Source: Candidatus Saccharimonadota bacterium
GTDB taxonomy: Bacteria; Patescibacteriota; Gracilibacteria; Absconditabacterales; Absconditicoccaceae
Direction of reading: 5' to 3'
NCBI GenBank assembly: GCA_965231145.1
Contig: OZ246420.1
Span: 870,001-902,000 of the forward strand
Length of the DNA: 32,000 bases
Positions 1-32,000 of this stretch are shown here, in pieces; the stretch's first letter is position 1, and the number at the start of each line of letters is the position of its first letter. The position numbers were made by a program, and so were the translations under genes. Below the pieces are notes generated by a model, which was given only the letters and a program-made list of their open reading frames with translations, had not been told where the DNA came from and did not search any database.

Positions 1-1
1 G

Positions 2-1657
2 CTCCAGCGTGGAGTTAACGAATATATTACTATTGTGACGAACAATAAAGATGCAGCATCTGATGCTATCATTTCTCATGCAGAAGATTGGTCTATGGTG
101 CAAGATAAGCTTGGCACAGAAAACTTTGATATTGCATCGCTTCCGCTTAGCTCATGGCAGACATTGCATGAACAATATGACAAAAAAAGAGCTGAGTACC
201 AAGCGAGCATGGGTGAACGTAAGGCGCTAGAAACACAACAACTACAGACTTCTCAGGAAATTGAGAAGTTGAAAGAGCAAAGAGCAAAGAGCAAAATTAT
301 GATTGAGAATCTCGAGAACAAGCTAAATACTGACAATAGTACTATCATCAAAGATTTTGTGATCAAAAAGCAGGACCTGCTTGCTCAGCAGGAGCTTATT
401 ACTCATGAACTACCGCTAGAAGCACTTGGTCTCAGCAATGTCTACGAACTCAATACATATATCATCGAGCTGGTTCAAAAAGGAAAAGATCTCGCAAGCA
501 AGAAAGAACAAAGCAAGCAAAAATTAGACTATCTCGAAAACGATCTTAAGAAGATCGATGAACGTAAAAACGGTATTGCGCAGCAATTAGCTATTGTAGA
601 TGAGTCGCGCTCAAAACAACAGTTTTTCTGTACAAAGATTGAAGACAACTGTCCATTTTTGGAGCAGATAAACCAAGGAATGTTTAAACGTCTCGATGAA
701 CAAAAGTCTCTTTTAGAAAAAGAGTTAGCATGACTCGATAAAGAAAAAATAGAGGCCGAACGCATCAAAGCAACCAAGGAATTAGAAGATGCAAAGGACG
801 CCTATGATCGTGCCATTGAAGAGTATAAAAAATATGATTTCAAGAAAATAAAAGAACAGATAGATGAATATAGCAAGCTTGATAGAGAACGCGGTGAAGT
901 CGATAAGAAAATAACCGTGCTTGATAAAGAAAAAGAATTACAGGAGGGTTATAGGACCGAGATCATACAGCTGCAGTCTCAGATAAAAAGCAATGAAGAA
1001 AGCATGAGCACCTTGAATACTCACTTAGTAAAGCTTGATACGCAGCTCAAGAAATTGCAAGAGACAACAAACATTAATGAGCTCGACAAAGTAGAAGCAA
1101 TGCTCTCCTCTATCGCGAGAGCGACGAAGATCCTTGAGTGAATAAAAGATCTCGTCGAGACACATAAGAATAATATGCTTCTCATTAAGCAGCTCGAAGA
1201 GAGAGAAGCGATGCTTGGACAGCTCTATACGATCTTTAGTAAAGAGATCATGATCCATGTACTGCAGCAAACGCTGCCACTTTTTGCCGATGTGTTGAAT
1301 AATTTATTAGCGAAGGTAGTAGAGTATACTGTCAGCTTTGAGACAAAAAATACCGGAGAGAAATTAGAGCTCGAGATTAAGGTACATGATGCCAAGGGAG
1401 AAAGACTCGTGAAATCACTTTCGGGAGGACAAAAAACTATCCTCAGGCTCACATGGACGCTTGCTATCTGTATTTTCACTCGCAGCAATGCGCTCTTCCT
1501 CGACGAAACGATTAATAATATCGACAAAGAAACCATAGGAAAAGTCGCTGACCTTATCGATGATTTCACGAAAACACACGATATTATGTTCTATATTATC
1601 ACACACTCAGAGACTATTCAGGAGATGGAGATTTGGGATAAGGTGATTAGTCTTTAA
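2..1657 (+). CDS. SbcC/Rad50-like SMC-family ATPase, C-terminal portion (5' end lies left of the window)
   Basis: Track ORFs 35-733, 917-1141 and 1175-1657 share one frame and are separated only by in-frame TGA (731-733, 1139-1141). The frame is open from nt 2. A long E/K/Q/L-rich coiled coil is followed by the ABC signature LSGGQK and Walker B ALFLDE. TAA at 1655-1657. Confidence 0.75.
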
Positions 1658-2769
1658 AGCAAATTATTCGGCTGAAGAAATTTTTCTTTCATAGCAACAT
1701 TCAACTGGGAATAAAGATGTTTAATTTCTTTTTCATGGTTAAATTTCTTCCAATCTTCAAAAATAAGTCCTGTTGTCATAGTCAGATGTCGTAGTTTATA
1801 GTTTCACTGAGGCAGAGATCACATATTTTCGCTATATTGTTTCATGGTCTCATCTTTACGAACATTATGACTCACTCACCTATCCAACAATTTATAAAGA
1901 TGTTGTTCAAAAGCCTTGTAGACTTCCGCTCCTGTTTTTTGTGATAAAAAGTCTTCTTTTATACCATTTATAGTGACAAATCCTTTTCTCGAGTGCGATG
2001 TACTTTTCACATCAATACAATAGACAGGAACTTGCTCAAATCAATTTTTCATCGCATATCATTTATCTATAACCACAATATCTGTTTTATAGTACTGATC
2101 GAGAAGTACAGAAAACTCCTTCAATGCCCTAAAATCAAGCACAATATAATTCCCTCTAAAGCTGGGTTGTAAGAAAAATCACAGCGCTAATGCATGAGAT
2201 AATATTCCTCCTATATTTGCCTGATCACAGTAAAGATCAAGAGTTTGTAATATAGATTGAATTTCACTGGTTCAGAGAGGAGCCTTATTTTTTATAAGAT
2301 GTTCATATAAGACTACTGCCAATGACTGTTGAAAAAATATAGTTTTTGAAACTTTATATTGTTTTTCATGATATAATTCGTGACCACCGCTCTCTTTATT
2401 GAGAGCCACATAGAATGTCTTTAACTCTTCATTCAATTTTTTCTTACTTTGCTCAAGAAGCAATACAATTTTTTTAGCAATTTCTTCTTGCACCTTATGA
2501 TAAGTCTTATTATTTACTGTCATATTCTTCACAATACGAGCACGAGTATCTTCGTCAATTTCTACAGACGCGAGTTTTCATGGAATAATACTTTCTCTAT
2601 GAGAAATTTTATCGACCTTCGATCATTCATCAGAAATAGGCAAATTATCTTTTTGCATCATCTCAGAAAAGATTCTCTCTTCTTCTTTATATGTATTAAT
2701 ATTATTATTAGCTCCCATGGCACCAGAAAGATAACACAATAACAAAAACACTATATCCTTAGCAGACAT
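1654..2769 (-). CDS. hypothetical exported protein (371 aa)
   Basis: ORF 2272-2532 extends in frame through several TGA codons in both directions. ATG at 2769, TAA at 1654-1656 (4-nt convergent overlap with the previous gene). The N-terminus MSAKDIVFLLLCYLSGAMGA looks like a signal peptide. No family recognised. Confidence 0.55.
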
Positions 2770-2787
2770 AATGTCAATGCATATGAT

Positions 2788-5196
2788 TTACAGCTTAATA
2801 TTTTGTGTATTCTGACACTCTGGATACTTGTTACATGCAAGGAAGTAACCACGCTTTGATTTCTTCACATGCATCACTCATTTTCCGCATTTTTCACATG
2901 TAACTCCTCCACATTTTGCTTCAAGTTCTTCCATCTTTTCATCCGGTATCGAAGAGATCCATTTTACCTTTGGATACTCAGATGATGTCAGAAACGGTCC
3001 AAATCTTCCCATCCTTACGACGATTGTTCCACCCTCCGGACATGGCTTCCCTTCATACTTTTCACGAAGCGGCTCAAGTGTGTCTTTTTCTTCCTGTGAC
3101 TTTTCTATGTAATCACACTCTGGATATCTACTACAACCAATAAACTTTCCAAAGCGCGTAAACTTATACACAAGATCTCACTCTTCACATTTCGGGCATT
3201 TTCTTCCTACTGGTACAATCTCCTTATCTCCTTTCTTCGCTTCCGCTATAGTCTTATCAAATCCTTCATAGAACTCTTTCATCATAGCAACCCATCATTT
3301 TTTTCATTCAGCAATAGTGTCTAATTCGTTTTCCATCTTCGCCGTGAACTCATAGTTCATCAGATTGACAAAATGCTTATCAAGGAAGTCTATAACCAGA
3401 AATGCTATCTCAGTCGGATGAAGCTTCTTATCTTCTTTTTTAAGGATGTATCCTCTATCTTGGATAGTTGAAATAGTTGGTGCGTATGTTGATGGACGAC
3501 CGATACCGTATGATTCAAGTGCTTTTACGAGAGTCGCTTCACTGTATCTTGCTGGCGGACGTGAAAATGATTGTGCTGCAATGATCGCTTTTGTATGGAG
3601 TGAAGTTCCCTTTTCAATGTTCGGAAGAGTTTGTTCTCCTCCTTCCTCTTCTTCTTCATCTCTTCCGTAGAGCACAAGAAAACCTGGAAATACGACACGA
3701 AGTCCTTTTGCTACCCACTCTTGCTTTGTCCCTTCAGGATTGAATGTATATGTAGTGCTCAGTAATTTTGCACTCGACATCTGTGAGGCAACTGTACGAG
3801 CCCAGATAAGTTCATAGAGCTTCAGTTCTTGTCATCCAAGCCCACTCGACGCTGGGATACGATCAATATATGTTGGTCTGATCGCCTCGTGCGCTTCCTG
3901 TGCATTTTTACTTTTTGTTGCAAATTTTCTGACCGTCAGATATTCTTTTCCATAGGCATCCTCAATATATTTTGCTGCAGCATTGATCGCAAGTCCTGAA
4001 AGATTAACGCTATCTGTTCTCATATAGGTAATGAAACCACTTTCGTAAAGCTTCTGTGCCGTCATCATGACCTGTTTTACTGATCGTCAGAGCCTTGATG
4101 CTCCGGCTTGTTGGAGGGTTGACGTAGTGAACGGTGCGGCTGGGTTTCTGGTAGTAGTTTTTTCCCCGATATCCGTGAGTGAAAAATGGCTATCAGCCGT
4201 GTAAGTATGTATCAGTGAGCCAGTCTTTTCGTTCGTTTTGATCTCAGGATTCATATGACTCGTAAGAGTTTTCACCATCGACTCGGCATCAGCAAGCGTA
4301 GGAAGTTCCACAGATTTTCCAGCATCTTTTATGAGCTCACAAGCTAAAGAACTGTTTTTATACTCAAGATTTGTTTTCAGCGTCCATGACTCTTGTGGTA
4401 CAAACTTCTGAATCTCTTTTTCTTTTTCTACGATCAACTTCACCGCTACTGACTGCACACGTCCCGCTGAAAGACCACGTCTTATCTTCGTCCAAAGTAC
4501 TGGTGACACATTAAATCAAACCAGACGATCGAGCACACGTCTTGCCTGCTGTGCATCTACTAGGTTCATATCTATGCTTCTTGGCTTTTCTACTGCAGCA
4601 TGTATGGCTTCCTTCGTAATTTCATGAAACACAATACGTGATGTTTTTTTGATATCCAAATTTAACGCCTGGGCTACATGCCATGCGATTGCTTCTCCCT
4701 CGCGGTCCTCATCGGTTGCAAGCCAGACTTTCTTTGCAACTTTTGCATCTCTTTTGAGCTCTGCGATAACTTTTTTCTTTTCCTCAGAAATCTCGTACGT
4801 CGGTGCAAAATTGTTTTTCACATCTATACCGAGCGTTTTTTGCGGCAAATCAGACACATGTCCAAACGACGCTTTTACTTCCCGGTCTTTTCCTAAAAAT
4901 CACTTAATGGTTTTTCCTTTTGCAGGAGACTCTACGATGACCAGATTTCTTCCCGTCACATCGACTCCCGATAACGAATATGATCTCGGCGCAGCCTTTT
5001 TATCAGAAGGCTTTTCTGCCGTTTTTTTTGCTGCTTTAGTCGTTGTTTTCTTCGCAGCTCTTTTTGCGGGCGCTTTTTTTGCTTTACTCGCTATAACACC
5101 TTCTATCATGCTTTCTGTAGTGTCGCCTCATGCAACAGTTGCCTTTTTTGCTTTCGCAGCGCTTCCGGCAGAACGCGTTGTTTTCTTTACTGGCAT
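2788..5196 (-). CDS. topA: DNA topoisomerase I with Lys/Ala-rich N-terminal extension
   Basis: Six same-frame minus ORFs (2878-3171, 3304-3780, 3832-4068, 4087-4509, 4516-4857, 4900-5109) are joined only by TGA. Motifs: Toprim [42 protein letters not shown], and C-terminal zinc ribbons ([32 protein letters not shown]). ATG at 5196, TAA at 2788-2790. Confidence 0.95.
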
Positions 5197-5338
5197 ATAT
5201 CCAAAGATCGTTTAAGGAATACAAAATGAATTTGTAATATAGGCAATAACACAGTAATTGCAAGAAAGGATACTCTTTGTGCTCTAAAAATAAGAAATAA
5301 TAGCATAATATGATCTTATTATTTGCGCTCAAGGATTG

Positions 5339-5366
5339 TTGACTTAATGCTTCATTTATGTAATAT
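5339..5366 (+). promoter_or_regulatory. sigma70-like promoter for the 922-aa orphan gene
   Basis: TTGACT (5339-5344), 16-nt spacer, TAATAT (5361-5366). The first in-frame ATG after it is at 5380. Confidence 0.45.
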
Positions 5367-5379
5367 ATGCTTTCTTACT

Positions 5380-8148: not shown

Positions 8149-8151
8149 TCT

Positions 8152-8179
8152 AAAAAACAGCCCTTAATGGGCTGTTTTT
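8152..8179. terminator. bidirectional rho-independent terminator between convergent genes
   Basis: aaaaaacagccc-ttaat-gggctgttttt: a GC-cored stem flanked by an A-run and a T-run, between stops at 8148(+) and 8195(-). Confidence 0.8.
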
Positions 8180-8194
8180 AGTATTTATCTGTTA

Positions 8195-9061
8195 TTACTG
8201 TAACCAAGGTGCGATAACCTGAGTGAAGGTTGCTGCCGGATATGCTCCGGCAATAAGAGTCCACTCACCTGTTTCATTGTTGATAATAAGGTTACCTGGG
8301 GTTCCTGTTGAATTAAATCCGACTGCCTCTTTCCAGTTTGCCGCATAGACTGATGCGAGCTCTTTTGTATCGAGACATGAGCTGAAATTCTTTTGATTGA
8401 GACCAAGCTTTGTTGCAAGGCTTACAACCTGAGATGTAGGAACGAGTGTTTCTGGAGTTGAACCACCCATGATAGCATCAAAAAGTCCATAATATGCATC
8501 CGCTCCTCCAAGCTTTCCAGCACAAAGTATAGCGAGTGATTTATATTCAGTTCCCTGATGATTTACACCCTGAACCACTTTTGCAATGTGATTCACATTT
8601 CCTTCAAAGCTTGCCATCACCGTGCTGATAGTCTTATCGTTGTGATGCCTGATACAAAATGGACATTCAGGGTCACTATATTCTACGATAGTCACTTTTG
8701 CATCTTTGTTTCCTGCAACATATGCGTCCTTCTTGACAGCAGCAAGCTGGTCTGGAGTAAGCTTTCCTGTAGGAAACTGTCCTGCTGCAGTATCTCCCTG
8801 GTCTTGAGCTGCTGGTTGCTGACCATTCATCTGAGCAAGTGCTTGTGAGATCTGTTGTTTCTGAGCACTCTTAAATCCTTCTGACTCATATAAAGTCTTT
8901 AACGTCGCATAGTTTTCCATACCTCCGACCTTGATCGCCTCGCTCTTTTCGATTTCTTGATGAATGTATGTCTTGATAGCAAAGAATTGCAATGCGAGAC
9001 CGATAAGCGTCAAAAGGGATATCACAAGTAATACAACGTGTACGGTATTTTCTTTTTTCAT
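8195..9061 (-). CDS. membrane-anchored DsbA-family thiol:disulfide oxidoreductase
   Basis: N-terminal TM helix (VHVVLLVISLLTLIGLALQFF), then a thioredoxin-fold region with the active site SDPECPFCIRHH. ATG at 9061 is preceded by GGAG; the track start at 9073 is TTG. TAA at 8195-8197. No TGA codon. Confidence 0.85.
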   Translation of the reverse strand: MKKENTVHVVLLVISLLTLIGLALQFFAIKTYIHQEIEKSEAIKVGGMENYATLKTLYESEGFKSAQKQQISQALAQMNGQQPAAQDQGDTAAGQFPTGKLTPDQLAAVKKDAYVAGNKDAKVTIVEYSDPECPFCIRHHNDKTISTVMASFEGNVNHIAKVVQGVNHQGTEYKSLAILCAGKLGGADAYYGLFDAIMGGSTPETLVPTSQVVSLATKLGLNQKNFSSCLDTKELASVYAANWKEAVGFNSTGTPGNLIINNETGEWTLIAGAYPAATFTQVIAPWLQ

Positions 9062-9087
9062 GAACAACTCCAATAAGAGATTAAAAA

Positions 9088-9483
9088 TTACTGATTAGCT
9101 CCTGTCATAGTTTCATCTGTAGGCATAGCTTCTTCTGTATCAGTGTCAGCACTTGTAGAAGGAGTCATAGTTTCATCTTCCATATTCCCCCCCATCATAC
9201 CACCTTGTGCCTGCATCTGCTTGTATGTTTCGATCTGAGACTGAATCTGATCTACTTGCTCACCAAATACCGATGCGTTATCCATATATATCTTCTTTAG
9301 TTGCTCATATTTCTCATGTCCTCCTACTTTCATAGACTCAACATTTTCAACACCTCTTTGCACCATAGTTGGAAGCGTAAGATATGTCAAAGCAGAAAAA
9401 GCAGCCGCAACAATAGCAAAAATAAGAGCAGCAGTAGCAACACCGTTTGTGTTTCTTACTGTCGTAGTGTTCATATCATTCAT
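9088..9483 (-). CDS. small membrane-anchored protein sharing the N-terminal module of the adjacent DsbA-like protein, with an acidic T/D/E/M-rich tail
   Basis: ATG at 9483, TAA at 9088-9090. TM helix VATAALIFAIVAAAFSAL. VENVESMKVGGHEKYEQLKKIY aligns with IEKSEAIKVGGMENYATLKTLY of the downstream gene. Confidence 0.65.
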   Translation of the reverse strand: MNDMNTTTVRNTNGVATAALIFAIVAAAFSALTYLTLPTMVQRGVENVESMKVGGHEKYEQLKKIYMDNASVFGEQVDQIQSQIETYKQMQAQGGMMGGNMEDETMTPSTSADTDTEEAMPTDETMTGANQ

Positions 9484-10257: not shown

Positions 10258-10259
10258 TT

Positions 10260-12479
10260 CTATTCAAGGGTCTTCTTCACTATCTTTAGAGAACTCAAAC
10301 GTTTTTTCAATTCATTTATCAGGAAATATATTTTCGCAGGATTATTTACATCAACAGTAAGATAGACATATTGCTGGTTTTCACCATGAAGTTCAGAATG
10401 TATTCCCGTAATATTGAGACGAAGTTCTGAAAACGTTTCGAAAAGTTGCAACAAGATGCCAGGCTGATCATCACAGAGTATTTTCAGTGAAAACTTATAA
10501 ACCGGAGCCTGTTGTCCTGCCCAGTGAGCTTCTAATAATTTATTGTAGGAAACACTTTGCAGCGCCATACAACTCATACGATGTATCTTTATTCCGTCTT
10601 TTCCTGAACGCGCAATAATTTTTTCTCCTACCGTAGGGCGACACTCCGGACATAAAAAATATCATATACTCATATCTCCATCGACCACCACTGTTTCAGC
10701 AAGCGGTGAATAAACCGGCGCTTGAGACTTTTTCTTTGTATGTTGCAATAGCGGCGAACTCTCTGGCAACTGATCTTTGTAGAGCCTTTTAATGAAAGTG
10801 TAGTACCCAAATTGTTTATCGAGAAGTTGCAACAACACCTGATCTAGGCGCTCATTTTTGTATTGTTTTGCAATACGGTCATCCTTTGAAAATAACGCAG
10901 GAAGATGATACTCCCTCAATTTTTCATCAAGTAGTTTTGTTGATTTTTCGATAAGATGCTTTCTTTCCTTTGTCTTGAGAAATTTCGTTAGTTTTGCTTT
11001 TGCGCTTGGAGTATGAAGATACTCAAACCGATTACTCGATGCGCTATATTTGTTTTTGAAAGGATTTATGACAACGATATCTCATGTATTAAGTATCGCT
11101 GAAATAGGCACGATACTTCCATTGACACTTGCATTGTTAAACCTTAGTCCAAGGTCAGAATGTATGCGAAATGCAAAGTCGAGCACCGAGCTTCACTCCG
11201 GAAGTTCGATAACATCACCCTTTTGGGTATAGACAAAAATATTGCGGTCGAACAGTTCTATATTCATATCATTTTTAAATTTTTCCTTATCGAGCTCGGT
11301 TGTATATGCTGTCACGATATCCTGAAGTTTTCTAATCCATTGTGCCTGACGCTCGCTAATAGTGGTAGAACCATGATTTTCTGCATATCCAAAATGAGCA
11401 GCCACGCCGTACTCCGCGATCTCATCCATCTCCTCCGTACGTATTTGTATCTCTACGGGAAAGTCAAACATACCAAGGATGGTTGTATGGATACTTTTGT
11501 AGTCGTTTGATTTTGGTATCGCGATATAGTCTTTAATCTTTTTTATCAATGGAATGTAGTGCGCATGAATCACTCAAAGGATATTGTAGCAGTTACCGAT
11601 ACTATCGGTCACTATACGAAATGCGATCAGGTCTGTCACTTTTGAAATATCAGCGGTGGAATTATACTTATGCTGCATTTTTTCAAATATTCTGTAGGGA
11701 CTTTTAATTCTTCCTATAATACGCACGGTAGGTATATGCTCTTCCGTAAGCAATCCCTGGATCATATCTACGCCCTTTTGCGTGATAGTATCATGAGCTC
11801 CTACCATCTTTTGAAGGTATGAGAAAATCCTCTCAAACTCTTTCGGGTAAAGTATCTTAAATGCTCCGTTTTCGAGGAACTGCTGATAGTAGAAGAGTCC
11901 TAGTCTTTTGGCGATAGGCACATAGATTTTTAGTGTCTCATTTGCGATACGTCTCCTCTTCTCTTCGTTTGGATGAAAATGCAGGGTCTGTACATTGTGT
12001 ATACGATCAACAAGCTTCACAAAAATAACGCGAAGGTCTTTTCCCATAGCAAGAAATGTTTTCTTCAGTGTCTCTAACTGGCGCTCCTCTCCTACATAAC
12101 GAACTTTTGACACTTTAACGAGTCCCTCACAAAGAACAGCCACCTCTTCACTGAAATGCTTTTTCACATCTTCATAGGTAATATCCGTATCTTCTATGAC
12201 ATCGTGCAAGATACATGTTTGGATAGTCGGGAGATCCGGCTTCATGGACATAAGGAAAATGGTTGCACGAAGAGGATGTACAATATATGGTTCGCCAGAA
12301 AGACGCTTTGTCTGCTCATGAGCATTTTTCGTAAACTCATATGTTTTCTGGATCACATCACGCGCTTGTACGGGCAAATATTGCGAAGCAAGATCTTTAA
12401 TCTCTTCTACCAAAAACTGAGGATCCTCAGAAAAAATCGGCTCATAGTCAAAATAACGCTCTAGTTCCTGTACATGCAT
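10260..12479 (-). CDS. rel: bifunctional (p)ppGpp synthetase/hydrolase, RelA/SpoT family (739 aa)
   Basis: Four same-frame ORFs (10260-10577, 10662-10919, 11193-11573, 11574-12479) are joined by TGA. Domains: HD (HPLRATIF...ILHDVIEDT), synthetase (YRIFEKM, LIAFRIV, CYNIL-G-VIH, KDYIAIPKSNDYKSIHTT), TGS (GDVIELPE-G-SVLDFAFRIHSDLG) and an ACT-like C-terminus. ATG at 12479, TAG at 10260-10262. Confidence 0.93.
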
Positions 12480-15153: not shown

Positions 15154-15570
15154 TTATTTCTGGTCTGAGAGATGAATAACATACTCATACTCCTCTTTTC
15201 TTATCGAAGCCACGGATAAACGCTGTTGTTTGAGCAATGATATGTGTTGTAAGTTTTTATCAGCCTTTATCTGTTCTAGTGAAACTGAATGTTTCAGTGC
15301 TTTGAACGGCTCTACTTCTACCACTACCCGATCTCATTTTTCTCATGCAGCGGTAGGATCGGGATAGGCTTCTTTGCTTACCTTTGCGATACCGACAATT
15401 TCTTTTCACTCATTACTATGATATCGAAAACAAAGGTCTCATTTTTTCATGGCATTAAGATTATTACGTGCCTGAAAATTTCTGACTCCATCCCACATCG
15501 TCTTACCATCGCGAACAAAATCATCTCGTGAATACTTATATGGCTCACTCTTAATCAATCGATAGTTCAT
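15154..15570 (-). CDS. EVE (PUA-like) domain protein
   Basis: Not in the track because of four in-frame TGA codons. Translation: MNYRLIKSEPYKYSRDDFVRDGKTMWDGVRNFQARNNLNAMKK-G-DLCFRYHSNE-G-KEIVGIAKVSKEAYPDP, the classic EVE-domain N-terminus. ATG at 15570, TAA at 15154-15156. Track ORF 15289-15531(+) is its antisense shadow. Confidence 0.85.
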
Positions 15571-19500: not shown

Positions 19501-20733
19501 ATGAAAATTGCTATCATAGGATGATGAGCGGCAGGCATGATGAGTGCTGCCATCATCGCAGAATACGGATCTCATGAAATTCACCTGTTTGAAAAAAATA
19601 GCAGACTATGAGCTAAGGTTCTTATTTCAGGATGATGAAGATGTAACGTGACTACTGGTTATATCAAAAAACAAGAACTCCAGAAAAAATATATTCGTGG
19701 GCGAGATTTTCTGCAGCATTCGATTTGACAGTTCTGACCTCGCAAAATGCGGCAGTGGGTAGAAGCTCACGGAGTGCCATTGAAATGTGAAGATGATATG
19801 CGTGTGTTTCCGCAAAGTGACAACGGGGGCGATGTGGTTGGTATTTTTGAGAAAATATTTCGTGAAAAGAAAGTACGTATTCATTTTAAAGAATGAGTTA
19901 ACTCACTGGAGAAAAAAGAAAACATGTTTATCGTCACAACAAAAGAATGAGTATATACTTTTGATAAAGTAGTAGTTACAACAGGATGAAATGCATATGC
20001 TCATACCTGATCAACAGGTGATGGATATGAACTAGTGAAACCCCTAGGACATACCACTACCCCACTCTGACCCTCACTCAATAGTTTTCTCGTGCAAGAA
20101 GAACGGATAAAAACGCTTTCTTGAATAAGTTTCTCAAACGCCCAGATTTCTTATCCTAAAGCAAAGGTTGTAGGGCCTGTCTTATTAACACACTTTTGAA
20201 CATCTGGACCCGCAGTCTTTGCATTTTCTGCACATAGTAGCTTTGAACAGATTGAAAAAATACACCCTCTGCATGTATTGCTCGTTCCCCAGGCAGAGAG
20301 GAATACAGAATGGCGAACACGCCGGCTCAATGAGTTCTCTCAAAACTCTCCAAAGAAACAAATCAATACGATACTTTCTTTTGAGTTTCCAGATCGTTTT
20401 GCTGAAGCACTGCTCCAGGCAATACACATTCCTCTAGAAAAGAAAATTGCTGATCTATCTCGCGAAGAAAAATTACTCATAAGCAAAACGCTTGGCGAAG
20501 GAATTCCTCTTTCTCTCATCGCACGCAGACCGGGCGATGAGTTTGTCACTGCATGATGAATCAATACTGATGAAGTAAATAGTAAAACCATGGAAAGCCT
20601 CATCTGTCCTTGACTCTACTTTGCAGGAGAAGTATTGAATGTCGATGGTGTCACATGATGATATAATCTACAAGCAAGCTGGTCAACAGGCTATGCAGCT
20701 GGAGTTGCTATCACGAATCAACTAAAAGAGTAA
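19501..20733 (+). CDS. HI0933/BaiN-type FAD-dependent flavoprotein (410 aa)
   Basis: Almost invisible in the track because it has 19 in-frame TGA codons. Translation: MKIAIIG-G-G-AAGMMSA, LISG-G-G-RCNVTTG, VVVTTG-G-NAYAHT-G-STGDGYEL, FVTA-G-G-INTDEV, FAGEVLNVDGVT-G-G-YNLQASWSTG. ATG at 19501, TAA at 20731-20733. Confidence 0.9.
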
Positions 20734-21342: not shown

Positions 21343-21727
21343 ACGTATGCTTCCTAATGAACTCTAGCAGATACGGCGTAAGTCATTTTTCCAATGCTGC
21401 ATCTTTTGTCGTCCACATATATTCTTCATGCTCCTCACTGAGATGAATTGCATGTTCAGGCGTCGTCCCTTTATACCCTAAAAATACAACATATTTATCC
21501 TCATCTTTATCATATGACGAAATACATTCTATCATCTGCAAAGAGTGTATATGAGTAAGTCACGTTTCTTCTTTGATCTCACGAATGAGTCACTCCTCTA
21601 TGGTCTCTGGCAGCACAACAGCACCTCATGGCAGATCTCGCATTTTATTGCCATATGATCTTTTCAAAAGCAGCAGATTTCCATCAGTATTAATAACAAT
21701 AATTTTTGCATGAATAGTAATCTGCAT
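21341..21727 (-). CDS. NUDIX hydrolase (128 aa)
   Basis: Nudix box LP-G-GAVVLPETIEE-G-LIREIKEET-G-L with TGA at the conserved glycines. ATG at 21727, TAA at 21341-21343. Confidence 0.85.
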
Positions 21728-21747: not shown

Positions 21748-22053
21748 TTAGTGTACACATTTGGTAAGCTTATCGATCACTTTCGTCACTTCCTTTCATT
21801 GTTTAGTCAGCAAATATCTGATCTGTACGGGTTTTTCAGAAACAACTTTTCTTTCGATCAATCCATATTGACTCAATTCGTCGAGCCTTTGGGAGACGAT
21901 GGTCGTGTTAGCGGAACCGATAGACTCTCTAATAGATGTATAGGTATCCGCCCCTTCATCGATCGCCTTTATGATAAAAATAACCCGTTTTTTTCAGAGA
22001 AGTTCAAAAAGTTCTGCAGACTTTGGACATTTATATTGTGGTGATTTTACCAT
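21748..22053 (-). CDS. HxlR-family winged-helix transcriptional regulator (101 aa)
   Basis: Translation: CPKSAELFELL-G-KKRVIFIIKAI..TYTSIRESIGSANTTIVSQRLDELSQYGLIERKVVSEKPVQIRYLLTKQ-G-KEV. ATG at 22053, TAA at 21748-21750. Divergent from the nitroreductase gene. Track ORF 21751-22044(+) is its shadow. Confidence 0.8.
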
Positions 22054-24391: not shown

Positions 24392-24416
24392 AAAAAGAGC
24401 CATATGGCTCTTTTTT
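24390..24416. terminator. bidirectional terminator between the pirin gene (+) and the UbiA/crt operon (-)
   Basis: aaaaaaagagcc-atat-ggctctttttt. Confidence 0.8.
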
Positions 24417-24493
24417 AGTTTATGTAATATCAAATAGTTCAGCACTATGCTAATTCTTTTCGATTATCTATATGAACTATCTTCTCTGATAGA

Positions 24494-25348
24494 CTATAAA
24501 ATATTCCACAACACCATAAAGAAAAGCAGCATCCCACTGAGCGCATTGATCCGAGGAAATCGCTTATAGAAAGCAAATAGTTTTGTAGTTTTGTAGTAGC
24601 GCAACGACAATAGCATCATCATGCAATATATCGCAGACATGATGATAATAATCCATCCTCAGAATGAAAAAGAAAGAACGCCAGCAACTGCATATAATAC
24701 GAAACAGAGAACCAATGTTCACTTTGCCCCACATAACGTTGCGATCGTTGGTACTCATGCGTCCGCATCTGCTTTAATATCAGGAACAGCTGAATACGCA
24801 TGCATAGCCATTGCCCACAGCACTCACGCGACAATATAATAATAGTTCAAAGGCTCAGAAGGTGCAACTAACAGAAATCAAAATGCTGCAGTTGCAATGT
24901 AATGTCACGCGCTAAACAAACTATCAAGTATTGGCCTCCCCTTTGCCCTGATCGGAGTTGCAGAGTATTGGGCAGAAAAAAAAAGAAACAGAAGAAAAGA
25001 AATATACGTGGCAATAGTGAGAGGAAGGACAAACAAAAACGGGATTGTTGTTCCAATGATTCGCGCCCATAATTTTTTATGCTCCTTGGGTTCAACAAGC
25101 GCCTCATATCCCTGTTTTTTAGGGTTGAGTTTATCTGTCTCATAATCGTAGATATCATTGATACCATAGATCCAAATATTTGCTGGCACGAGAAAATATA
25201 ATCCAAAAACTAGGATGCGTCGTAATTCGAGGTCTGTCCATGTAAGAGACAGTGCGAACATTGCACTCAGTATTCCTATCATAAATGGTCATAGCTCATA
25301 GATCCAAAATCTTGGTCTTGAGATACGCATTACTCTTTGAAAACGCAT
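24494..25348 (-). CDS. UbiA-family polyprenyltransferase adjacent to crt genes (lycopene-elongase-like position)
   Basis: ORF 24905-25282 extends both ways through about 8 TGA codons. N-terminus MRFQRVMRISRPRFWIYEL-G-PF. First Asp-rich motif NDIYDYETD; second SAVPDIKADADA-G-VPTIATLCGAK. Multiple TM helices. ATG at 25348 (13 nt after the crtB stop), TAG at 24494-24496. Confidence 0.8.
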
Positions 25349-25361
25349 GATGATAAGATAA

Positions 25362-26213
25362 TTAGTAAAAGTATTTCCACATATGAGAGAGCACGATACG
25401 AAGTTTATCTCTTTTTGTGGTTTTTGCAGAATACGCAAAGATATTATAATCACATTTTTCTATTTTTCTCAAGATACCCTGATAGAGCTTTGCTGAAAGA
25501 TAAATAGCATTTCTTGTCTGTCGAGGGAGATACTGTAGTCATTGGAGAGCAAGCTCGTAGAGCGCATCTGCACGTGAGATCTGAAAGCGCATATACTCTC
25601 TTCGGGATGAGTCGATCTCACTAGTTGTCATATATCTTTCTATATCCTCATGCGACAACCCAAATGCTTTCATATCTTCAAGTGGCATATAGATACGACC
25701 GAGATCAACATAGTCCTCTTTGACATCACGCAGAAAGTTTGTAAGCTGCATTGCCTCTCCGAGGGTTCTTGCGTAAGGCAAAGCACGATCATCATGTTCT
25801 CCTAACACATAACACATCATTTCACCCACCACCATAGCAGATCCATACATATACGTTTTCAGCTCTTCATAGGTATTATAGCGAAACTTTTCTGTATCCA
25901 GCAGCATAGCATCCCAGAAAGCTCTACTCAATGCAAATGGAATATCATGCCTATAAAACAACCTTACCGCATCTCATCGGGTTTTATGCAATACATCTCT
26001 ATCGCTATATGCTTTCTCCCATTCCTCCCACATCTTCAGAAGTTCTTTTTTTGCGGAGTCAGCATCCTGATCTTTTACATCAACAACAAGATCGGGTATA
26101 CGTACAAATGCATACAGCGTCATCACATCATCTTTTATAGATGCAGGAAAAAACAAAGTAGCATAATAATAACTCGTCCCATACTTTTTCATGTAAAACG
26201 ATGTCTGCTGCAT
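25362..26213 (-). CDS. crtB: phytoene/squalene-synthase family enzyme (CrtB-like; a C30 CrtM type cannot be excluded)
   Basis: ORFs 25974-26213 and 25539-25961 plus the tail are joined by TGA. Motifs: YYYATLFFP, LYAFVRIPDLVVD, YMYGSAMVVGEMM, QLTNFLRDVKEDY..GRIYMP. The ATG at 26211-26213 overlaps the crtI TAA by 1 nt. TAA at 25362-25364. Confidence 0.88.
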
Positions 26214-27694
26214 TAGTGGTTTTTACGCGCTAAAACTCTTTGAGCAGTGAGTTCACCTGAGATAAGACACATCTGAGTCCCTATTCCCGGATTAGTATAC
26301 GATCATGTATAATAGAGTCATTTTACTTTTTTACTATAATTATTTGGTCTGAGTACTGCTGTTTGCATCAGAGTATGCGCTATACCTAGGGCAGTTCATT
26401 TATATGCATTATATCTTTCTGAAAAGTGTTTCATATGAAAAAGCCTTTTAAATTCGATGCGACTTTTCAAGTCAGGTATATGGCACACATCTGCTATCAT
26501 ATCGAGAACTTTCGCCGTATAAATTTCCTCTTCTTGCTCTGTCAGGATAACACCCGGCGCACAAGGAACTAACACAAACATATTTTCCTTACCAACTGGC
26601 GCAACGGAATCATCTGTTTCGCTTGACTTACAAATATACATAGAAGGATCTGTTGGTAATATTTTCTTTTCAAAGATCTCATCGAAGTTTTTCTTCCAAT
26701 CCTGCGTAAAGATAAGATTATGATGAGTAAGCATAGGAAGTTTCCCATCTACTCCAAGATAAAGGATATATGCTGATGGCGCGAGAGTTTTCTTTTTCCA
26801 GTAGCTTTCCGGATAGGTCTGTTCTTCTTTATCTAACATATGAGTCTCCGTAAACCGCATATCAGCATTTGAAACTACGATATTCGAATGAATATGTTTC
26901 CCACTTTCCAACATAATTCCGGTTACCTTTTTTTTCTCTGTGATTATCTTTTTTACTGGAGCATTAGTATATATTTCTACACCATTTTTTTCAGCAATAT
27001 TTTTCAAAGACCTGATTATTTCATAAAGCCCTCCTTGTGGATACCATACTCATTGTGCGAAATCTACATGAGACATAAGCGAATAGATGGCCATAGCATC
27101 GTATGGCGATGTCCCAAGGAATAATAGTGGATAACTTACTATTTTCTGCATTTCCTCTGTCTTAAAAAATCACTTTACATAGGAATGCATCTTTTGAAAC
27201 ACATTGAGTTTTAGTCCCTGGATTGCAGTATCAAGAGAAAAGAAATCCAAGAAAGAATCATAATTTCTGTAGACAAATTTTTCCAGCGCTACTGTATACT
27301 GATATGAAGCGCGGCGAAGATACTCCTTAAAAGGCTTACTCACACCTGGTTCTATTTTTTCAAATGTAGCAAGATCTTTTGACACATCAGCAGCCACATC
27401 CACTATGCGGTTTTGTGGAGTGAAAAATATTCTATAACTAGGAGAAAGTTTTGTCAGCTTCAAATGAGCATCAATATCTTCCTGTACTTCCTTATAAAAA
27501 CGCTCGAAAACATCCGGCATAAGATACCAGCTTGGTCACATATCAAATCTATATCCATTCTCTTCTAAAAGAGACGCTCTTCAACCAACTTCTTCATTTT
27601 TTTCATAAAGACAAACTTTATATCATGCGCGCGCAAGAAATATTGCACAACTCAACCCTCCTATTCCTCAACCAATCACTATCGCTTTTTCCAT
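26213..27694 (-). CDS. crtI: phytoene desaturase family FAD oxidoreductase (CrtI-like; CrtN type cannot be excluded)
   Basis: Same-frame ORFs 27170-27520 and 26396-27007 plus flanks are joined by at least 9 TGA codons. Motifs: MEKAIVIG-G-GIGGLSCAIFLARA-G-YKVCLYEKNEEVG-G-RASLLEENGYRFDM-G-PSWYLMP, FLGTSPYDAMAIYSLMSHVDFAQ-G-VWYPQGG, C-terminal TNPGIGTQMCLISG. ATG at 27694, TAA at 26213-26215. Confidence 0.9.
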
Positions 27695-27710
27695 CTGTTC
27701 TGTCTAATAG

Positions 27711-29093
27711 CTAAATAATATGTACTAATTCAGCAATATGCTTGATCCTTGTATAATCTATAACCGCCATACTCTCGCCCATCTCTTTCTTTCTTTTTTC
27801 GTGAAGCTTTGTCGGAAGAATCTGTCAGCCAAGGCCAATCTCCCCAAGGAATAATAAATTTTTATCGACTACCACATTTTTAAACTGTGAATAAATACCT
27901 GCTGCGATTGCGAGATCGAGTCCGCTGTCGTGAAACGAAAACTCTCACGGGATATTTACAAAGACGTCGAACCATCAAAGCTTCGCTTTGAGATATCTCT
28001 CAAGGATAGCGATAATAAGATCAACACGTTTGCCCTCCACTCCGACAACCTGACGCACAGGAAATTTTCCTTGAGTTTTATTGAGCAGGACTTCAAGATG
28101 TACAACAACAGGACGACCATTATCTATCCCTACAGTTAATACTGATCATGGAATAGTCAAATTTGCTGATCAGACGATACGTTCTTTGAGATCATAGACA
28201 GGCTTGAGTCAAAATAATGTCATCTCGAATATTGCAATCTCATCCGTACTTCAGAAACGATTTTTCATGTAACGAAGGATACGATATTGACCATAGCGAT
28301 CTCATTCCAAGTATAAAACTGCATCGACTAAATGCTCCAGATATTTTGGTCCTGCGATCTCTCCTCCCTTGGTTACATGACCGATGATAAGCGTCGTGAT
28401 ATTTTTCTTTTTGCTAAGTTCTGCTATCTTCTCCGCACAATATTTCACCTGCGCTGGGCTTCAGGATGCACCTTCGAGATTGCCTGATGAGATCGTTTGG
28501 ATAGAGTCAATGATGATGACCTGATACTGCCCTGTTTCTGCTGTAAGAAGGATATCTTCTACACTATTAGAGTGATATATATCAAATTCAGATCATGGGT
28601 TATGGGTTATAGGTTTACCTGCCGTGGTAGATCATAGCTTATTTTCTGTATCAGCATCAGTCGACTGTATCTCCTTATTTCATTCGTAATTCGTAATTTG
28701 TCATTCGTAACTAGTAAGCCTATGCTGTCTATCGACGATTTGATCACTCTGTTCTTCACCAGAAAAATATGCTATACGCACATTAGTCAGTTGATGGATA
28801 ATCTGGAGCGCTATAGTAGACTTGCCAATTCCTGGCTCTCCGCCTAGAAGATAAACTCATCACTCCTTGAGTCACTTTGGAAACAAACGAATGAGTTCCT
28901 GATCTTGCAATGAAAAATATGATGATCATTTTTTCTCTGTCATTTCAAGCGACTGTCATGTAGTCACTCATCATTTCTTCTTTCATACTCCAATAATTCC
29001 GGCTGCCGACACAAAAGAACCAAATGCTCCACACTCCGGACATTTTCCTAGTTTTATCGCACTCGCATTGCCACACTCACTACACACATACAT
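27711..29093 (-). CDS. radA: DNA repair protein RadA/Sms (460 aa) with a repeat-derived internal insertion
   Basis: Absent from the track because of 21 in-frame TGA codons. N-terminal zinc ribbon CSECG..CPECG, Walker A LLGGEPGIGKST, IIIDSIQ, GHVTK-GG-EIAGP, KNRF-G-STDEIAIFEM, and a Lon-like C-terminal domain (VFVNIP-G-E...LDLAIAAGIYS). ATG at 29093, TAG at 27711-27713. Confidence 0.92.
28681..28708. repeat. tandem heptanucleotide tract inside radA (cattcgt aattcgt aatttgt cattcgt)
   Basis: Four period-7 units, translated on the minus strand as ..YE-G-QITNYE-G-N... A second tract, atgggtt atgggtt ataggtt, lies at 28595-28615. Confidence 0.7.
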
Positions 29094-29174
29094 CTCACCT
29101 TCACGATACAAAATAAAGATAAACTCAGTCTATTCATCTCACAGAAGGATGCAACACCACCACTCATATATAAT

Positions 29175-29201
29175 AAAAAAGAGGAGATAATTCCTCTTTT
29201 T
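29175..29201 (-). terminator. terminator after the polyprenyl synthase gene
   Basis: aaaaaagagga-gataat-tcctcttttt, overlapping the TAA. It separates the synthase transcript from radA-crtI-crtB-ubiA. Confidence 0.7.
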
Positions 29202-30282
29202 AGATATTTCTCAAAAGATCTATGACCGCCTGGAAGTTCTCCTTATATGACTCAACTGGAAGTGTCATTTTCTTTAAAAGCTTTTCTGCTTCAGTCAGAT
29301 ATTCTTCCACACACTTTTTACCATAGGCAATTGCTCCACTATCAATAAACACCTGGCGCAACTCATCAATCTGCTGCTTTGAGAGCCTCTTTCCCATAGC
29401 GCTACTTATCGCAAGACGATGTGCATACTTTCCTTGGTCATAGATATATTGGGTAAGATATGTCTGCTGGCCATCCTGTATATCAGAGAACTTTGTTTTG
29501 TTATCGTAATGTGTAGTCTCATCCCCCTCTTCGACCATCACATCGAGAAGATCATCACGCATTTGGTATGCTTTTCCTAACACTTCACCAAGATAATCAA
29601 ATTTTTTACAAAGAGCCTTATCTGCTCATGCAAGAAGCGCTCCCGTTAAGATAGGTCTTACAAAAGTATATTTCCCTGATTTATAATGATTTTTTTTCTC
29701 CAATAATTGTTGATCAATATTGTCTCCTACCATAATATCTACATCAATAATCTGCCCTGCTATCACCTCTTCAATCGTCTCCTGTACATTTTTCTGTGCA
29801 GCAGCAAGATATGGTACATGTATAGATGGATACACGCTGTAGAGAATTTCATAGACCCATGAAAAAACAAGATCTCCCATAAGAATCGCCTGAGAGATAC
29901 CTATATGATCTTTATTTGTTGACGATAAAAGTCATGATACAAATTTATGGTACGTATGCACCCCATGTCTTAGCTCCCCCCTATCTATAATATCATCATG
30001 GATCAAAGCCATCTCATGAAGCAACTCATGCGTCTGTGCAAATTGTATTATCTCTTTGTCGGCAGTTCATCCACACGCCTTATAAGCAAGATACACAAGA
30101 TACGGTCTTACACGCTTGCCACCACTAAACGTAAAATCATCAATATATGCAACAATTTGTTGCATCCTTGGAGAGGAAGCTATTTTCTGCGATTGTTTTA
30201 CTTTCGCAGCGATGTATTTTCTGAGTTCTTTATCAAATATTTGCTTAAATGCTTTGATGTCCATCAGTTTGGGCTTTTTCAA
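29200..30282 (-). CDS. polyprenyl diphosphate synthase (FPP/GGPP synthase type, 360 aa)
   Basis: Same-frame ORFs 30067-30282, 29626-29880 and 29200-29583 are joined by TGA. GKRVRPYL, first Asp-rich motif LIHDDIID, second QMRDDLLD. TAA at 29200-29202, followed by a hairpin. Confidence 0.9.
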
Positions 30283-30331
30283 GCGCTAAATGCGATACAG
30301 TATACCGATCGACCTTGCGAATGCAAATCAG

Positions 30332-30359
30332 AAAAACTCAGCTAATATGCTGAGTTTTT
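30332..30359 (-). terminator. terminator after the InsA-like gene
   Basis: aaaaactcagc-taatat-gctgagttttt, an 11-bp stem overlapping the TAA at 30358-30360. Confidence 0.75.
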
Positions 30360-30657
30360 AATGTGAACACTGAGTACAATTTCATTTATGTTTCTTCGCC
30401 CATGCAATGATCGTAGAAGTCGAAAGAGAAAATTTTTCTGCGACGCTGCGAGCATCATTACCTGTATGACAGTACTCATCAACGACTTGCTGACGAAATC
30501 ATTCGTCATAGGTTCCTCTTGCTCCGCCTACCGTAAAATGTTTGCGGCAATCGCCGCAACGAAATCTCTGTCCGCCCGTGGGAAGCTGTCCGTTTTTTTG
30601 AATGCGACCGCTGTGACAGAATAAACAATCTATAAGACGTTTGAGATGTTTTTTCAT
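30358..30657 (-). CDS. IS1 InsA-like zinc-ribbon plus HTH protein with no adjacent catalytic transposase ORF
   Basis: Translation: MKKHLKRLIDCLFCHSGRIQKNGQLPTGGQRFRCGDCRKHFTV...FRQQVVDEYCHTGNDARSVAEKFSLSTSTIIAWAKKHK. This is the pattern C-x2-C..NG..G.QR..C..C. ATG at 30657; reads through TGA at 30499 and one more. TAA at 30358-30360. Confidence 0.55.
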
Positions 30658-30710
30658 GATGATATCTAATACAAAGAACGCCCCGAGTGTACACACCCGA
30701 GGCAAAAAGT

Positions 30711-31256
30711 CTATCTTTTTTTCAAAGAAACCGTGAATTTATTTTTAAGTCCCAATCTACGGAGCACGGCATCTCTCCACCAAAATGAAATAGTCACGAA
30801 AACAATAATAGCACCAAGCGCGACAAATTCTACTGTCTCACTCCCCGCTTCTTCGTGCTCATGAAGTTCAAAGCCAATAAGACGTGGAACGATATGCAAC
30901 AAGACAATATGTGCGATAAGTATCAACGTAGAAATCGAAAAGAATTTTCCTACTGACTGCGCTGTGTTATCATTATGCTTTGACCATCTATGGATCCACC
31001 ACCAATTAATGATTGCAAGAAGAATAACACCTAACAAATGGATACCTTGTAATACTCCCTCATAACCAATCATATCTTGCCAGCTCATATGATTTACCGC
31101 CGCGATGATGATAAGTTCAATAGCAAGAACGAGAATATTATAGATTATCGTTGCGATGCAGATCGGATGCTCCTTGAGATGCTTCCGGGAAAGATCGTGA
31201 TGATGATTGTGTGCGTGCATAGAGAGTATTATTTTAAGATGAATAATAAAGAACAT
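30711..31256 (-). CDS. four-TM membrane protein with His-rich N-terminus (HAHNHHHD)
   Basis: Intact ORF with no TGA. ATG at 31256 or 31220, TAG at 30711-30713. Four hydrophobic segments, Trp-rich loop INWWWIHRW. No family recognised. Confidence 0.55.
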   Translation of the reverse strand: MFFIIHLKIILSMHAHNHHHDLSRKHLKEHPICIATIIYNILVLAIELIIIAAVNHMSWQDMIGYEGVLQGIHLLGVILLAIINWWWIHRWSKHNDNTAQSVGKFFSISTLILIAHIVLLHIVPRLIGFELHEHEEAGSETVEFVALGAIIVFVTISFWWRDAVLRRLGLKNKFTVSLKKR

Positions 31257-31302
31257 AGAGCTAGCCCCGGTAAACCAGGGCTAGTCAATAAAGCATTTTG
31301 AC

Positions 31303-31608
31303 TTACTGTAAATAAGCATGCAATCTTTTTTGGGCAGCTACGATATAGCTGTTTTCCGGCTGTCGGGCAGGGAAAGTTTTTGTACCTACTTTCATATATA
31401 CATTACTTCCTGCCACGAGAATACTGCCACCCATTTTACACCCATAGGTAGCAGCATCTATAGCTACCGTAGCATGATTAGCGGCCACATGCGTCCGCGC
31501 GAACGCACAATTATTACATGGATTCGAACCGCCCGGACTATCGCATGGATGAGAGAGACATGGAGCAACATTTACCATTGCAGAACCAGTAAGAGATTTT
31601 TGTTTCAT
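31303..31608 (-). CDS. small Cys-rich protein (101 aa), unknown function
   Basis: Intact ORF with ATG at 31608 and TAA at 31303-31305. It looks more GC-rich than the surroundings and has no TGA. Motifs: CLSHPCDSPGGSNPCNNC and YGCKMGGSILVAGSNVYMKVG. A sigma70-like promoter lies upstream. Confidence 0.5.
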   Translation of the reverse strand: MKQKSLTGSAMVNVAPCLSHPCDSPGGSNPCNNCAFARTHVAANHATVAIDAATYGCKMGGSILVAGSNVYMKVGTKTFPARQPENSYIVAAQKRLHAYLQ

Positions 31609-31634
31609 TAGGTTTTCTATTTATGTGAATCTGT

Positions 31635-31662
31635 ATTGTACCACTCTTCTCCTCAAAATCAA
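31635..31662 (-). promoter_or_regulatory. sigma70-like promoter with extended -10 upstream of the Cys-rich small gene
   Basis: Minus strand: TTGATT (31662-31657), 16-nt spacer ending in TGG, TACAAT (31640-31635), about 26 nt before ATG 31608. Confidence 0.4.
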
Positions 31663-31847
31663 TACAATATTCCTCAAAACTACAACAACCATAATCTGGC
31701 CTTGAAACTTATTTCTTTTTCTCTTATAGTACGTACGTTCTTTTGTTTTACATAAAAAGCAAGAGATTATCGATATAAACTTTTCTCACTCCTGCCGGAG
31801 GGGCGTTACTTTTTAGCATATCCCTAAAAAGCAACCAAAAAGGTCTA

Positions 31848-31995
31848 GTCGGATATAGCACTACGAGCCTGTGAGTTATTCAAACATTGAATACGACGTC
31901 TTTCGCTGTCGCGCGCATCACAGCGACTCCAGCTCAATACTACCATTCTTATTATATTTCACGATCGCAAAGAGAAGACGTGGGGTATATCCGAC
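31848..31995. ncRNA. candidate structured RNA or MITE-like element (nested helices), family unknown
   Basis: Outer 10-bp pairing gtcggatata (31848-31857) with tatatccgac (31986-31995). Inner 7-bp pairing acgtctt (31896-31902) with aagacgt (31975-31981). Hairpin tattcaa-aca-ttgaata (31877-31893). Hairpin tcgctgt-cgcgcgcatc-acagcga (31903-31926). Non-coding in all frames. Confidence 0.3.
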
Positions 31996-32000
31996 GAATA

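Follow-up and report, generated by a model that had tools for sequence, protein, structure and literature searches.

Comparative evidence for a doubly altered genetic code, with UGA as glycine and CGA and CGG as tryptophan, in a 32-kb DNA fragment of an Absconditabacterales bacterium

What do TGA, CGA and CGG mean in a stretch of DNA where TGA recurs inside most of the genes? The question is raised by positions 870,001 to 902,000 of contig OZ246420.1 (GenBank assembly GCA_965231145.1), and we will refer to these 32,000 nucleotides, at their full length, as “the window.” UGA is read as glycine (Gly) in SR1 and Gracilibacteria (PMC8629427; PMC8080830), and CGA and CGG have been predicted to encode tryptophan (Trp) in Absconditabacteria (Shulgina and Eddy, 2021, eLife; PMC8629427), a meaning which a 2026 paper treats as the Absconditabacterales code (PMC13092985). 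The present analysis indicates that the window very probably uses this doubly altered code, with UGA as Gly, CGA/CGG as Trp, and UAA and UAG as the only codons terminating translation. The meanings proposed for UGA, CGA and CGG rest on residue conservation and on codon exchange between orthologs.

The window has a GC content of 38.7%. Taking TAA, TAG and TGA all as stops, it holds 53 open reading frames (ORFs) of at least 100 amino acids (aa), the longest of 534 aa; with TAA and TAG as sole stops, long non-overlapping ORFs of up to 1,057 codons appear, and 28 non-overlapping genes were derived on this basis (Table 1), 92% of the window being coding. These genes end in TAA (23) or TAG (5) and never in TGA, as a preliminary description made from the sequence had claimed for true gene ends. 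In-frame TGA occurs 156 times in them besides 480 GGN codons, which amounts to 24.5% of Gly codons, and CGA (29) and CGG (18), at 29 and 18 per 10,000 codons, represent about 36% of Trp codons when added to the 85 TGG. Table 11 would leave four of the 28 genes unbroken and fragment the other 24, the longest piece of RadA being 48 aa long (10% of the protein). When TGA was masked as X, matches to Pfam profiles ran end to end across the TGA codons, as found for Topoisom_bac/Toprim, RelA_SpoT/HD_4/TGS/ACT, ABC_tran, HI0933_like, Amino_oxidase (CrtI-type), the RadA-type ATPase, SET, NUDIX, EVE and Pirin. The six TGA coordinates quoted in the preliminary description all proved to be TGA codons inside the motifs named there, and its hand counts were exact, with 21 TGA and 31 GGN in RadA (21/52) and 19 TGA and 23 GGN in the HI0933-type flavoprotein (19/42).

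The residue specified by TGA was examined by masking this codon and aligning ten proteins to solved structures (PDB) from standard-code organisms, keeping the best PDB match per protein; since TGA was masked and the structures come from standard-code organisms, the test is independent of any gene caller. Gly was found at 47 of the 80 aligned TGA sites, Trp at one (ambiguous) and cysteine (Cys) at none. With 7.5% taken as the background frequency of Gly, the first 78 of these sites give a binomial P of ~7e-33. By protein, the sites with Gly are distributed over the flavoprotein (14/19), pirin (6/9, E. coli YhhW), the ABC exporter (6/10), NUDIX (3/4), EVE (2/3), HxlR (2/2), Rel (3/3 of the sites covered by the alignment with B. 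subtilis Rel, including 11574-11576), RadA (9/20), TopA (2/8) and CrtB (0/2), and the other sites occupy variable positions. Similar results were obtained from MAFFT alignments of 120 database homologs per protein. Among flavoprotein homologs of normal Trp content, 14 of the 19 TGA columns are at least 97% Gly, and in conserved columns of low-Trp homologs TGA falls on Gly at 25 of 26 sites and on proline at one. The Trp seen in flavoprotein TGA columns comes solely from relatives of inflated Trp content (table 4 translations), and in RadA homologs the sum of Trp and Gly percentages is approximately constant (9-10%), one rising as the other falls.

The strongest test of codon meaning is the exchange of codons between orthologs. 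A syntenic relative (locus L070, from Logan assembly ERR3428547; the same protein is also present on a 936-kb NCBI contig, JAUIDC010000001.1) was used, and codon pairs were tallied over 13 orthologous gene pairs of 36-79% identity. The 83 window TGA codons stand opposite GGN 47 times, TGA 11 times and TGG never (58/83 Gly-type partners), and window GGN stands opposite TGA of the relative 28 times. The reading of TGA as Gly put forward in the preliminary description is consequently borne out three times over, by structures, homolog columns and exchange with GGN. As for the other two codons, window CGA (n = 16) is paired with TGG (5), CGA (5) and CGG (1), and window CGG (n = 9) with TGG (3) and CGA (1); taken together, these 25 codons meet TGG eight times, CGA/CGG seven times and arginine (Arg) codons never. 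In the opposite direction, the 41 window TGG codons meet TGG 26 times and CGA 11 times, and none of the 190 window CGT, CGC, AGA and AGG codons lies opposite CGA or CGG. The EVE and SET alignments show this CGA/CGG-TGG exchange residue by residue. Exchange with TGG and none with CGT, CGC, AGA or AGG indicates that CGA and CGG are synonymous with TGG, and not with the Arg codons, in this lineage.

Conservation points to the same meaning of CGA and CGG (Table 1 gives the coordinates of sites left without them here). With both codons masked and the proteins aligned to standard-code PDB homologs, the best matches give 17 sites, occupied by Trp at six, tyrosine or phenylalanine (Tyr/Phe) at four, other residues at seven and Arg at none. 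In the EVE protein, residue 4 is Trp in 4/4 PDB homologs (motif YWL-KSEP), residue 15 is Trp or Ile (Trp in 2/4), residue 49 is Phe or Tyr in 4/4 and residue 81 is Trp or Phe, and three of these four codons are TGG in the L070 ortholog. Trp is also found at HxlR residue 23 (4/5 PDB homologs; motif LG-K-W), NUDIX residue 30 (3/4; motif W-x-LPGG), Rel residue 484 (CGG 11028-11030; B. subtilis Rel) and CrtB residue 204 (CGA; PDB 5iys), and two TopA codons correspond to E. coli Tyr (residue 105, CGG 4882-4884) and Phe (residue 371, CGA 4084-4086). Two flavoprotein sites lie on columns with 82-99% Trp, namely residue 202 (70/71 homologs) and residue 272 (58/71), and the conserved Arg columns of this alignment are encoded by CGT, CGC, AGA and AGG alone. 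Furthermore, among UbiA and DsbA-like homologs, Trp in Gly columns and Arg in invariant Trp columns occur together, in the same relatives.

Plain table 25, with UGA as Gly and CGA/CGG still as Arg, would explain such placements by chance or by lineage-specific substitution. It is the table officially assigned to SR1 and Gracilibacteria, CGG is kept as Arg in some Gracilibacteria (PMC8629427), approximately 40% of the CGA/CGG sites fall in variable columns, and some Arg does appear in a few homolog columns (flavoprotein residues 84 and 275). Nevertheless, this explanation is improbable in view of the missing Arg at the 17 structural sites, of the two flavoprotein Trp columns, and of the exchange with TGG (eight pairings seen from window CGA/CGG, 11 from window TGG), against none with CGT, CGC, AGA or AGG; it would moreover leave HxlR and the product of gene 31303-31608 devoid of Trp. 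In this sense, the table 25 proposed in the preliminary description holds for TGA as Gly and is incomplete here for CGA/CGG, because these 47 codons behave as Trp and not as Arg.

The relatives of the window are those expected for the doubly altered code. The nearest named RadA sequences belong to Ca. Vampirococcus lugosii (52%), Ca. Absconditicoccus praedator (51%) and SR1 bacterium Aalborg_AAW-1 (41%). The best locus among GTDB species by RadA is the metagenome-assembled genome (MAG) JAUIDC010000001.1 (73%), the next ones being MAGs that bear the label Absconditabacterales or SR1, and near-identical contigs occur in the Logan assemblies of ERR4405439, ERR4405440 and ERR4405441. As the closest relatives are Absconditabacterales (SR1), the earlier assignment to the candidate phyla radiation (CPR) holds, the placement in the recoded CPR clade (GTDB class JAEDAM01) being a similarity ranking and not a tree. 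By the same comparison, the window would be a chromosomal fragment of an undescribed species-level lineage in the order Absconditabacterales (SR1, CPR/Patescibacteria).

Several observations weigh against the code proposed here. All the evidence is comparative, and some ambiguity of decoding is conceivable, between Gly and termination or between Trp and Arg. Around 40% of the TGA sites, like the same share of CGA/CGG sites, lie in uninformative variable columns. One TGA, at residue 80 of CrtB, lies opposite a Trp of PDB 5iys; it comes second in a CGA-TGA pair of which both codons were masked as X, a one-residue shift places the Trp on CGA, and the neighboring CGA is the likelier partner. The use of TGA is uneven among genes (chi-square 70, 27 degrees of freedom, p = 1e-5). 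Regarding the decoding machinery, ARAGORN and Rfam searches of the window returned no tRNA gene and no Rfam match, nor was a release-factor gene present in it, and no tRNA with a UCA, UCG or CCG anticodon was found in 20 loci (~270 kb) of the organism and its Absconditabacterales relatives.

Since the window holds neither a tRNA nor a release-factor gene, the tRNAs and the loss of release factor 2 are taken from the literature of the clade (PMC8629427). According to it, UGA would be read by a tRNA(UCA) with the Gly identity elements G1:C72, C2:G71, G3:C70 and U73, and release factor 2 would be absent; CGA and CGG would belong to tRNA(UCG) and tRNA(CCG), both of Trp identity (G73, no A20), and a tRNA-Arg(GCG) would keep CGU and CGC as Arg. 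A metagenome scan with a pattern made of the anticodon loop TTCAA, a T-arm and a CGCT 3' end yielded 14 normal-sized tRNAs with a UCA anticodon, labelled SeC by ARAGORN. Eight of the 14 form one family, with acceptor stem GCGGGGG/CCCCCGC followed by U73, a length of 79 nt, an encoded CCA end and an unusually long D-loop (TAACATAAAAGAGTGAGTGTA). They are carried by metagenome contigs (loci L084, L088, L108, L111, L116, L119, L139 and L150) of 36-41% GC, whose ORFs lengthen with TGA as sense. A tRNA-Arg(GCG) adjoins the tRNA(UCA) in six of the eight loci; L088 has a neighboring tRNA-Gly(GCC) and L119 no neighboring tRNA. The flanking genes are 39-58% identical to loci L008 (Absconditabacterales) and L013 (‘Candidatus Peribacteria’); the RadA of the window shares 50 and 43% identity with theirs, respectively. 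A codon-pair analysis of the tRNA(UCA)-bearing loci aligned near-identical DNA in each of the six frames, off-frame ORFs among them, and its pairs were set aside. Since a Gly-type 3' end was built into the pattern, the result of the scan speaks for tRNA(UCA) genes with a Gly-type acceptor stem in the wider group and not for one in this organism. A separate observation concerns locus L109 (1-74, minus strand), a contig of 62% GC bearing a canonical tRNA-Gly body with a UCA anticodon (GCGGGTGTAGCTCAATGGTAGAGCACCAGCCTTCAAAGCTGG...), which could be a UGA suppressor or phage tRNA of a non-CPR organism.

The uneven use of the reassigned codons deserves separate consideration. Four genes are free of TGA (8195-9061, 9088-9483, 30711-31256 and 31303-31608). 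The first two, adjacent to each other and encoding a DsbA-like protein and its neighbor (8195-9483), have 34 Gly codons, none of them TGA (P = 7e-5), and lack CGA/CGG altogether; at the other extreme, UGA accounts for 40-45% of the glycines of RadA and the flavoprotein. Recent horizontal transfer was considered as the cause of the TGA-free DsbA-like gene and ruled out, since its closest relatives (45-50% identity) carry the Trp-for-Gly and Arg-for-Trp signatures of recoded genomes; mistranslated TGA and CGR codons in these relatives thus show that the gene is not foreign. Candidate causes of TGA avoidance in 8195-9483 are the level of expression or export. There is a minor chance that the reassigned codons are not used neutrally, owing to translational cost or residual ambiguity, and that the code is still evolving rather than finished; either could take the form of decoding by tRNA-Gly(UCA) that is slow or leaky, or of Trp-Arg competition at CGA/CGG.

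A rival explanation is a code in transition, in which UGA would mean both Gly and stop, or CGA/CGG both Trp and Arg. Uneven use of the reassigned codons, with two adjacent genes for exported proteins lacking all of them, would fit such a dual meaning, as would the risk of wobble between tRNA(UCA) and UGG, and ambiguity of this kind can be excluded by experiment alone (Shulgina and Eddy; PMC8629427). Its chances are slim, given that none of the 28 genes needs UGA as a stop, that TAA/TAG ends match the ends of Pfam domains, that frequent termination at the 156 internal UGA would come at a very high cost in essential genes, and that TGA does occur in the relatives' versions of the TGA-free gene.

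A table 4 type code, with UGA as Trp as in Mycoplasmatales and some insect endosymbionts, is refuted by the residues found in the TGA columns. Public proteins of the same organism do bear Trp at every TGA. Against this code, the tally of residues aligned to each TGA is dominated by Gly, with a single ambiguous Trp versus 47 Gly among 80 sites, and orthologs show no TGA-TGG pair. Reading TGA as Trp would give a composition of 2.4% Trp and just 4.9% Gly, compared with 6.5% Gly when TGA is read as Gly; the constant sum of both residues in RadA homologs is a signature of mistranslation, and the relatives are SR1, not Mollicutes. Finally, the view of TGA as real stops (a decaying, pseudogene-rich genome, selenocysteine sites, or sequencing or assembly errors) has the bare presence of in-frame TGA in its favor and nothing more, and is refuted by the count of 156 TGA versus no in-frame TAA or TAG across the 28 genes, by the frame and domains carrying on beyond every TGA, by TGA lying on invariant Gly and not on Cys or selenocysteine columns, by the recurrence of the same TGA-rich genes in the independent assemblies ERR4405439, ERR4405440 and ERR4405441, by the occurrence of such genes in the 57-79% identical relative L070, with TGA and GGN interchanged, and by the absence of selenocysteine insertion sequence (SECIS) elements among the Rfam results for the window.

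The main practical value of reading the window with UGA as Gly and CGA/CGG as Trp is correct gene annotation. For these contigs, gene callers that select the code from coding density settle on table 4, and the public Logan proteins P0001 and P0121 (ERR4405439_654) are indeed table 4 translations with Trp at every TGA; in short contigs of the same organism translated with table 11, three fragments of 65, 84 and 120 aa stand for the polyprenyl synthase. Table 4 turns every UGA-encoded Gly into Trp, including those of P-loops, FAD folds and the ABC signature, and table 25 still turns 47 Trp (~36% of Trp codons) into Arg, including the sole Trp of HxlR. Structure predictions, family assignments and phylogenies based on such translations inherit these errors, and the constant Trp plus Gly percentage of RadA homologs can serve as a quick flag for mistranslated proteins. 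Besides, the reassignment of CGA/CGG to Trp has so far been based on a computational screen, and the window adds independent comparative support for it, including an ortholog codon-exchange matrix.

Table 1. Genes of the window with TAA and TAG as the only stops, and their reassigned codons (x, residue encoded by TGA).
Gene product	Position	Strand	Codons and remarks
SMC/SbcC-like ATPase, C-terminal part	2..1657	+	5' end cut by window edge; 2 TGA, 0 CGA/CGG, stop TAA
Hypothetical protein, 371 aa	1654..2769	-	9 TGA, 1 CGA
DNA topoisomerase I (TopA), 802 aa	2788..5196	-	9 TGA incl. 4516-4518 in LDRLV-x-FNVSP
Large hypothetical protein, 933 aa	5347..8148	+	5 TGA, 6 CGA, 2 CGG
DsbA/thioredoxin-like exported protein, 288 aa	8195..9061	-	0 TGA among 24 Gly codons; 0 CGA/CGG
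Hypothetical membrane-anchored protein, 131 aa	9088..9483	-	0 TGA, 0 CGA/CGG
Zinc-ribbon membrane protein, 151 aa	9645..10100	-	1 TGA
RelA/SpoT (p)ppGpp synthetase/hydrolase (Rel), 739 aa	10260..12479	-	4 TGA incl. 11574-11576 in CYNIL-x-VIH
PAP2 phosphatase-like membrane protein, 181 aa	12784..13329	-	4 TGA, 3 CGA, 1 CGG
ABC exporter (transmembrane domain + ATPase), 587 aa	13348..15111	-	13 TGA incl. LSGGQ signature, 13645-13650 (LS-xx-QRQR)
EVE-domain protein, 138 aa	15154..15570	-	4 TGA; CGA 15559-15561 (residue 4), 15526-15528 (residue 15), 15424-15426 (residue 49); CGG 15328-15330 (residue 81)
Large surface protein with PKD and TSP3 repeats, 942 aa	15688..18516	-	16 TGA, 3 CGA, 2 CGG
Hypothetical membrane protein, 270 aa	18565..19377	-	1 TGA
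HI0933-type flavoprotein, 410 aa	19501..20733	+	19 TGA incl. IIG-xx-AAG at 19522-19527; CGG 20104-20106 (residue 202); CGA 20314-20316 (residue 272)
SET-domain protein, 158 aa	20829..21305	+	4 TGA; motif GL-G-LYA
NUDIX hydrolase, 128 aa	21341..21727	-	4 TGA incl. Nudix-box glycines; CGA 21638-21640 (residue 30)
HxlR-type regulator, 101 aa	21748..22053	-	2 TGA; sole Trp codon = CGG 21985-21987 (residue 23)
Nitroreductase, 208 aa	22194..22820	+	3 TGA
Protein with Mur-ligase C-terminal domain, 230 aa	22817..23509	-	3 TGA, stop TAG
Pirin/quercetinase-like protein, 236 aa	23681..24391	+	9 TGA
UbiA-family prenyltransferase (lycopene-elongase-like), 284 aa	24494..25348	-	7 TGA, 3 CGA, 1 CGG
Phytoene/squalene-synthase family protein (CrtB-like), 283 aa	25362..26213	-	2 TGA, 3 CGA
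CrtI-family phytoene desaturase, 493 aa	26213..27694	-	9 TGA incl. 27668-27670 in VIG-G-GIGG; 1 CGG
RadA/Sms, 460 aa	27711..29093	-	21 TGA/52 Gly codons incl. 28251-28253 in KNRF-x-STDE; stop TAG
Polyprenyl diphosphate synthase, 354 aa	29200..30264	-	3 TGA
InsA-type zinc-ribbon/HTH protein, 99 aa	30358..30657	-	2 TGA
Hypothetical membrane protein, 181 aa (169 aa in Logan call)	30711..31256	-	0 TGA, 1 CGG
Hypothetical protein, 101 aa	31303..31608	-	0 TGA, no TGG; 1 CGA, 1 CGG

Among the remaining features of the window, a carotenoid-type cluster occupies 24494-30264 (minus strand) and is conserved in L070 (3914-10855), in the order polyprenyl diphosphate synthase, RadA, CrtI-family desaturase, phytoene/squalene-synthase family protein and UbiA prenyltransferase. 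The desaturase matches TIGR02734 with 493 bits and NF058655 (CrtID) with 602 bits, below the cut-off of 640, and the UbiA protein matches NF009516 with 227 bits, above the cut-off of 205, its relatives being named ‘lycopene elongase/hydratase’ by JGI. Pigment synthesis would be unexpected in a reduced CPR genome, and a literature search found no paper tying Absconditabacteria to carotenoids. The CrtI stop and the CrtB start overlap as TAATG (26211-26215, minus strand); the ATGA stop/start overlap, common in standard-code bacteria, is unusable here because TGA is a sense codon. The InsA-type protein with a zinc ribbon and a helix-turn-helix (HTH), similar to transposase N-terminal regions, is also conserved in L070 (3517-3813) and lies close to the polyprenyl synthase gene there too; no transposase catalytic domain adjoins the gene in the window (30358-30657, minus strand). 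The final ~400 bp of the window (about 31620-32000) are non-coding, and the three Logan assemblies of the same organism all end near position 31.8 kb, a shared end which suggests a repeat or hard-to-assemble region immediately to the right; in all, Logan added about 1 kb to the 32 kb of the window.

Comparison with known systems places the window closest to the code inferred by Codetta for Absconditabacterales (PMC8629427), which comprises all three reassignments with the same meanings as seen here. CGA and CGG are rare and AGA and CGT are the main Arg codons in that code, as in the window, whose GC content is also inside the reported range. Most published species have fewer than 37 CGA and fewer than 7 CGG per 10,000 codons, the window (29 and 18) being at the high end and resembling in its usage the ‘advanced’ case GCA_002791215.1 (PMC8629427). 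The RadA of the window is 51-52% identical to those of the members Vampirococcus and Absconditicoccus, and 73% to that of the nearest GTDB representative. NCBI table 25, the code of SR1 and Gracilibacteria (Campbell et al., 2013; Rinke et al., 2013, both as cited in PMC8629427 and PMC8080830), shares UGA as Gly and UAA/UAG as sole stops, and differs in that CGA/CGG are Arg. NCBI table 4 (Mycoplasma/Spiroplasma) likewise has UGA as a sense codon in small, AT-leaning bacterial genomes; it differs in specifying Trp instead of Gly and in belonging to an unrelated lineage, and translation with it puts Trp into the invariant Gly motifs of P-loops, FAD folds and LSGGQ. With UGA as Gly known since 2013 and CGA/CGG as Trp predicted in 2021, the window is a clean new example of this code and no new kind of code.

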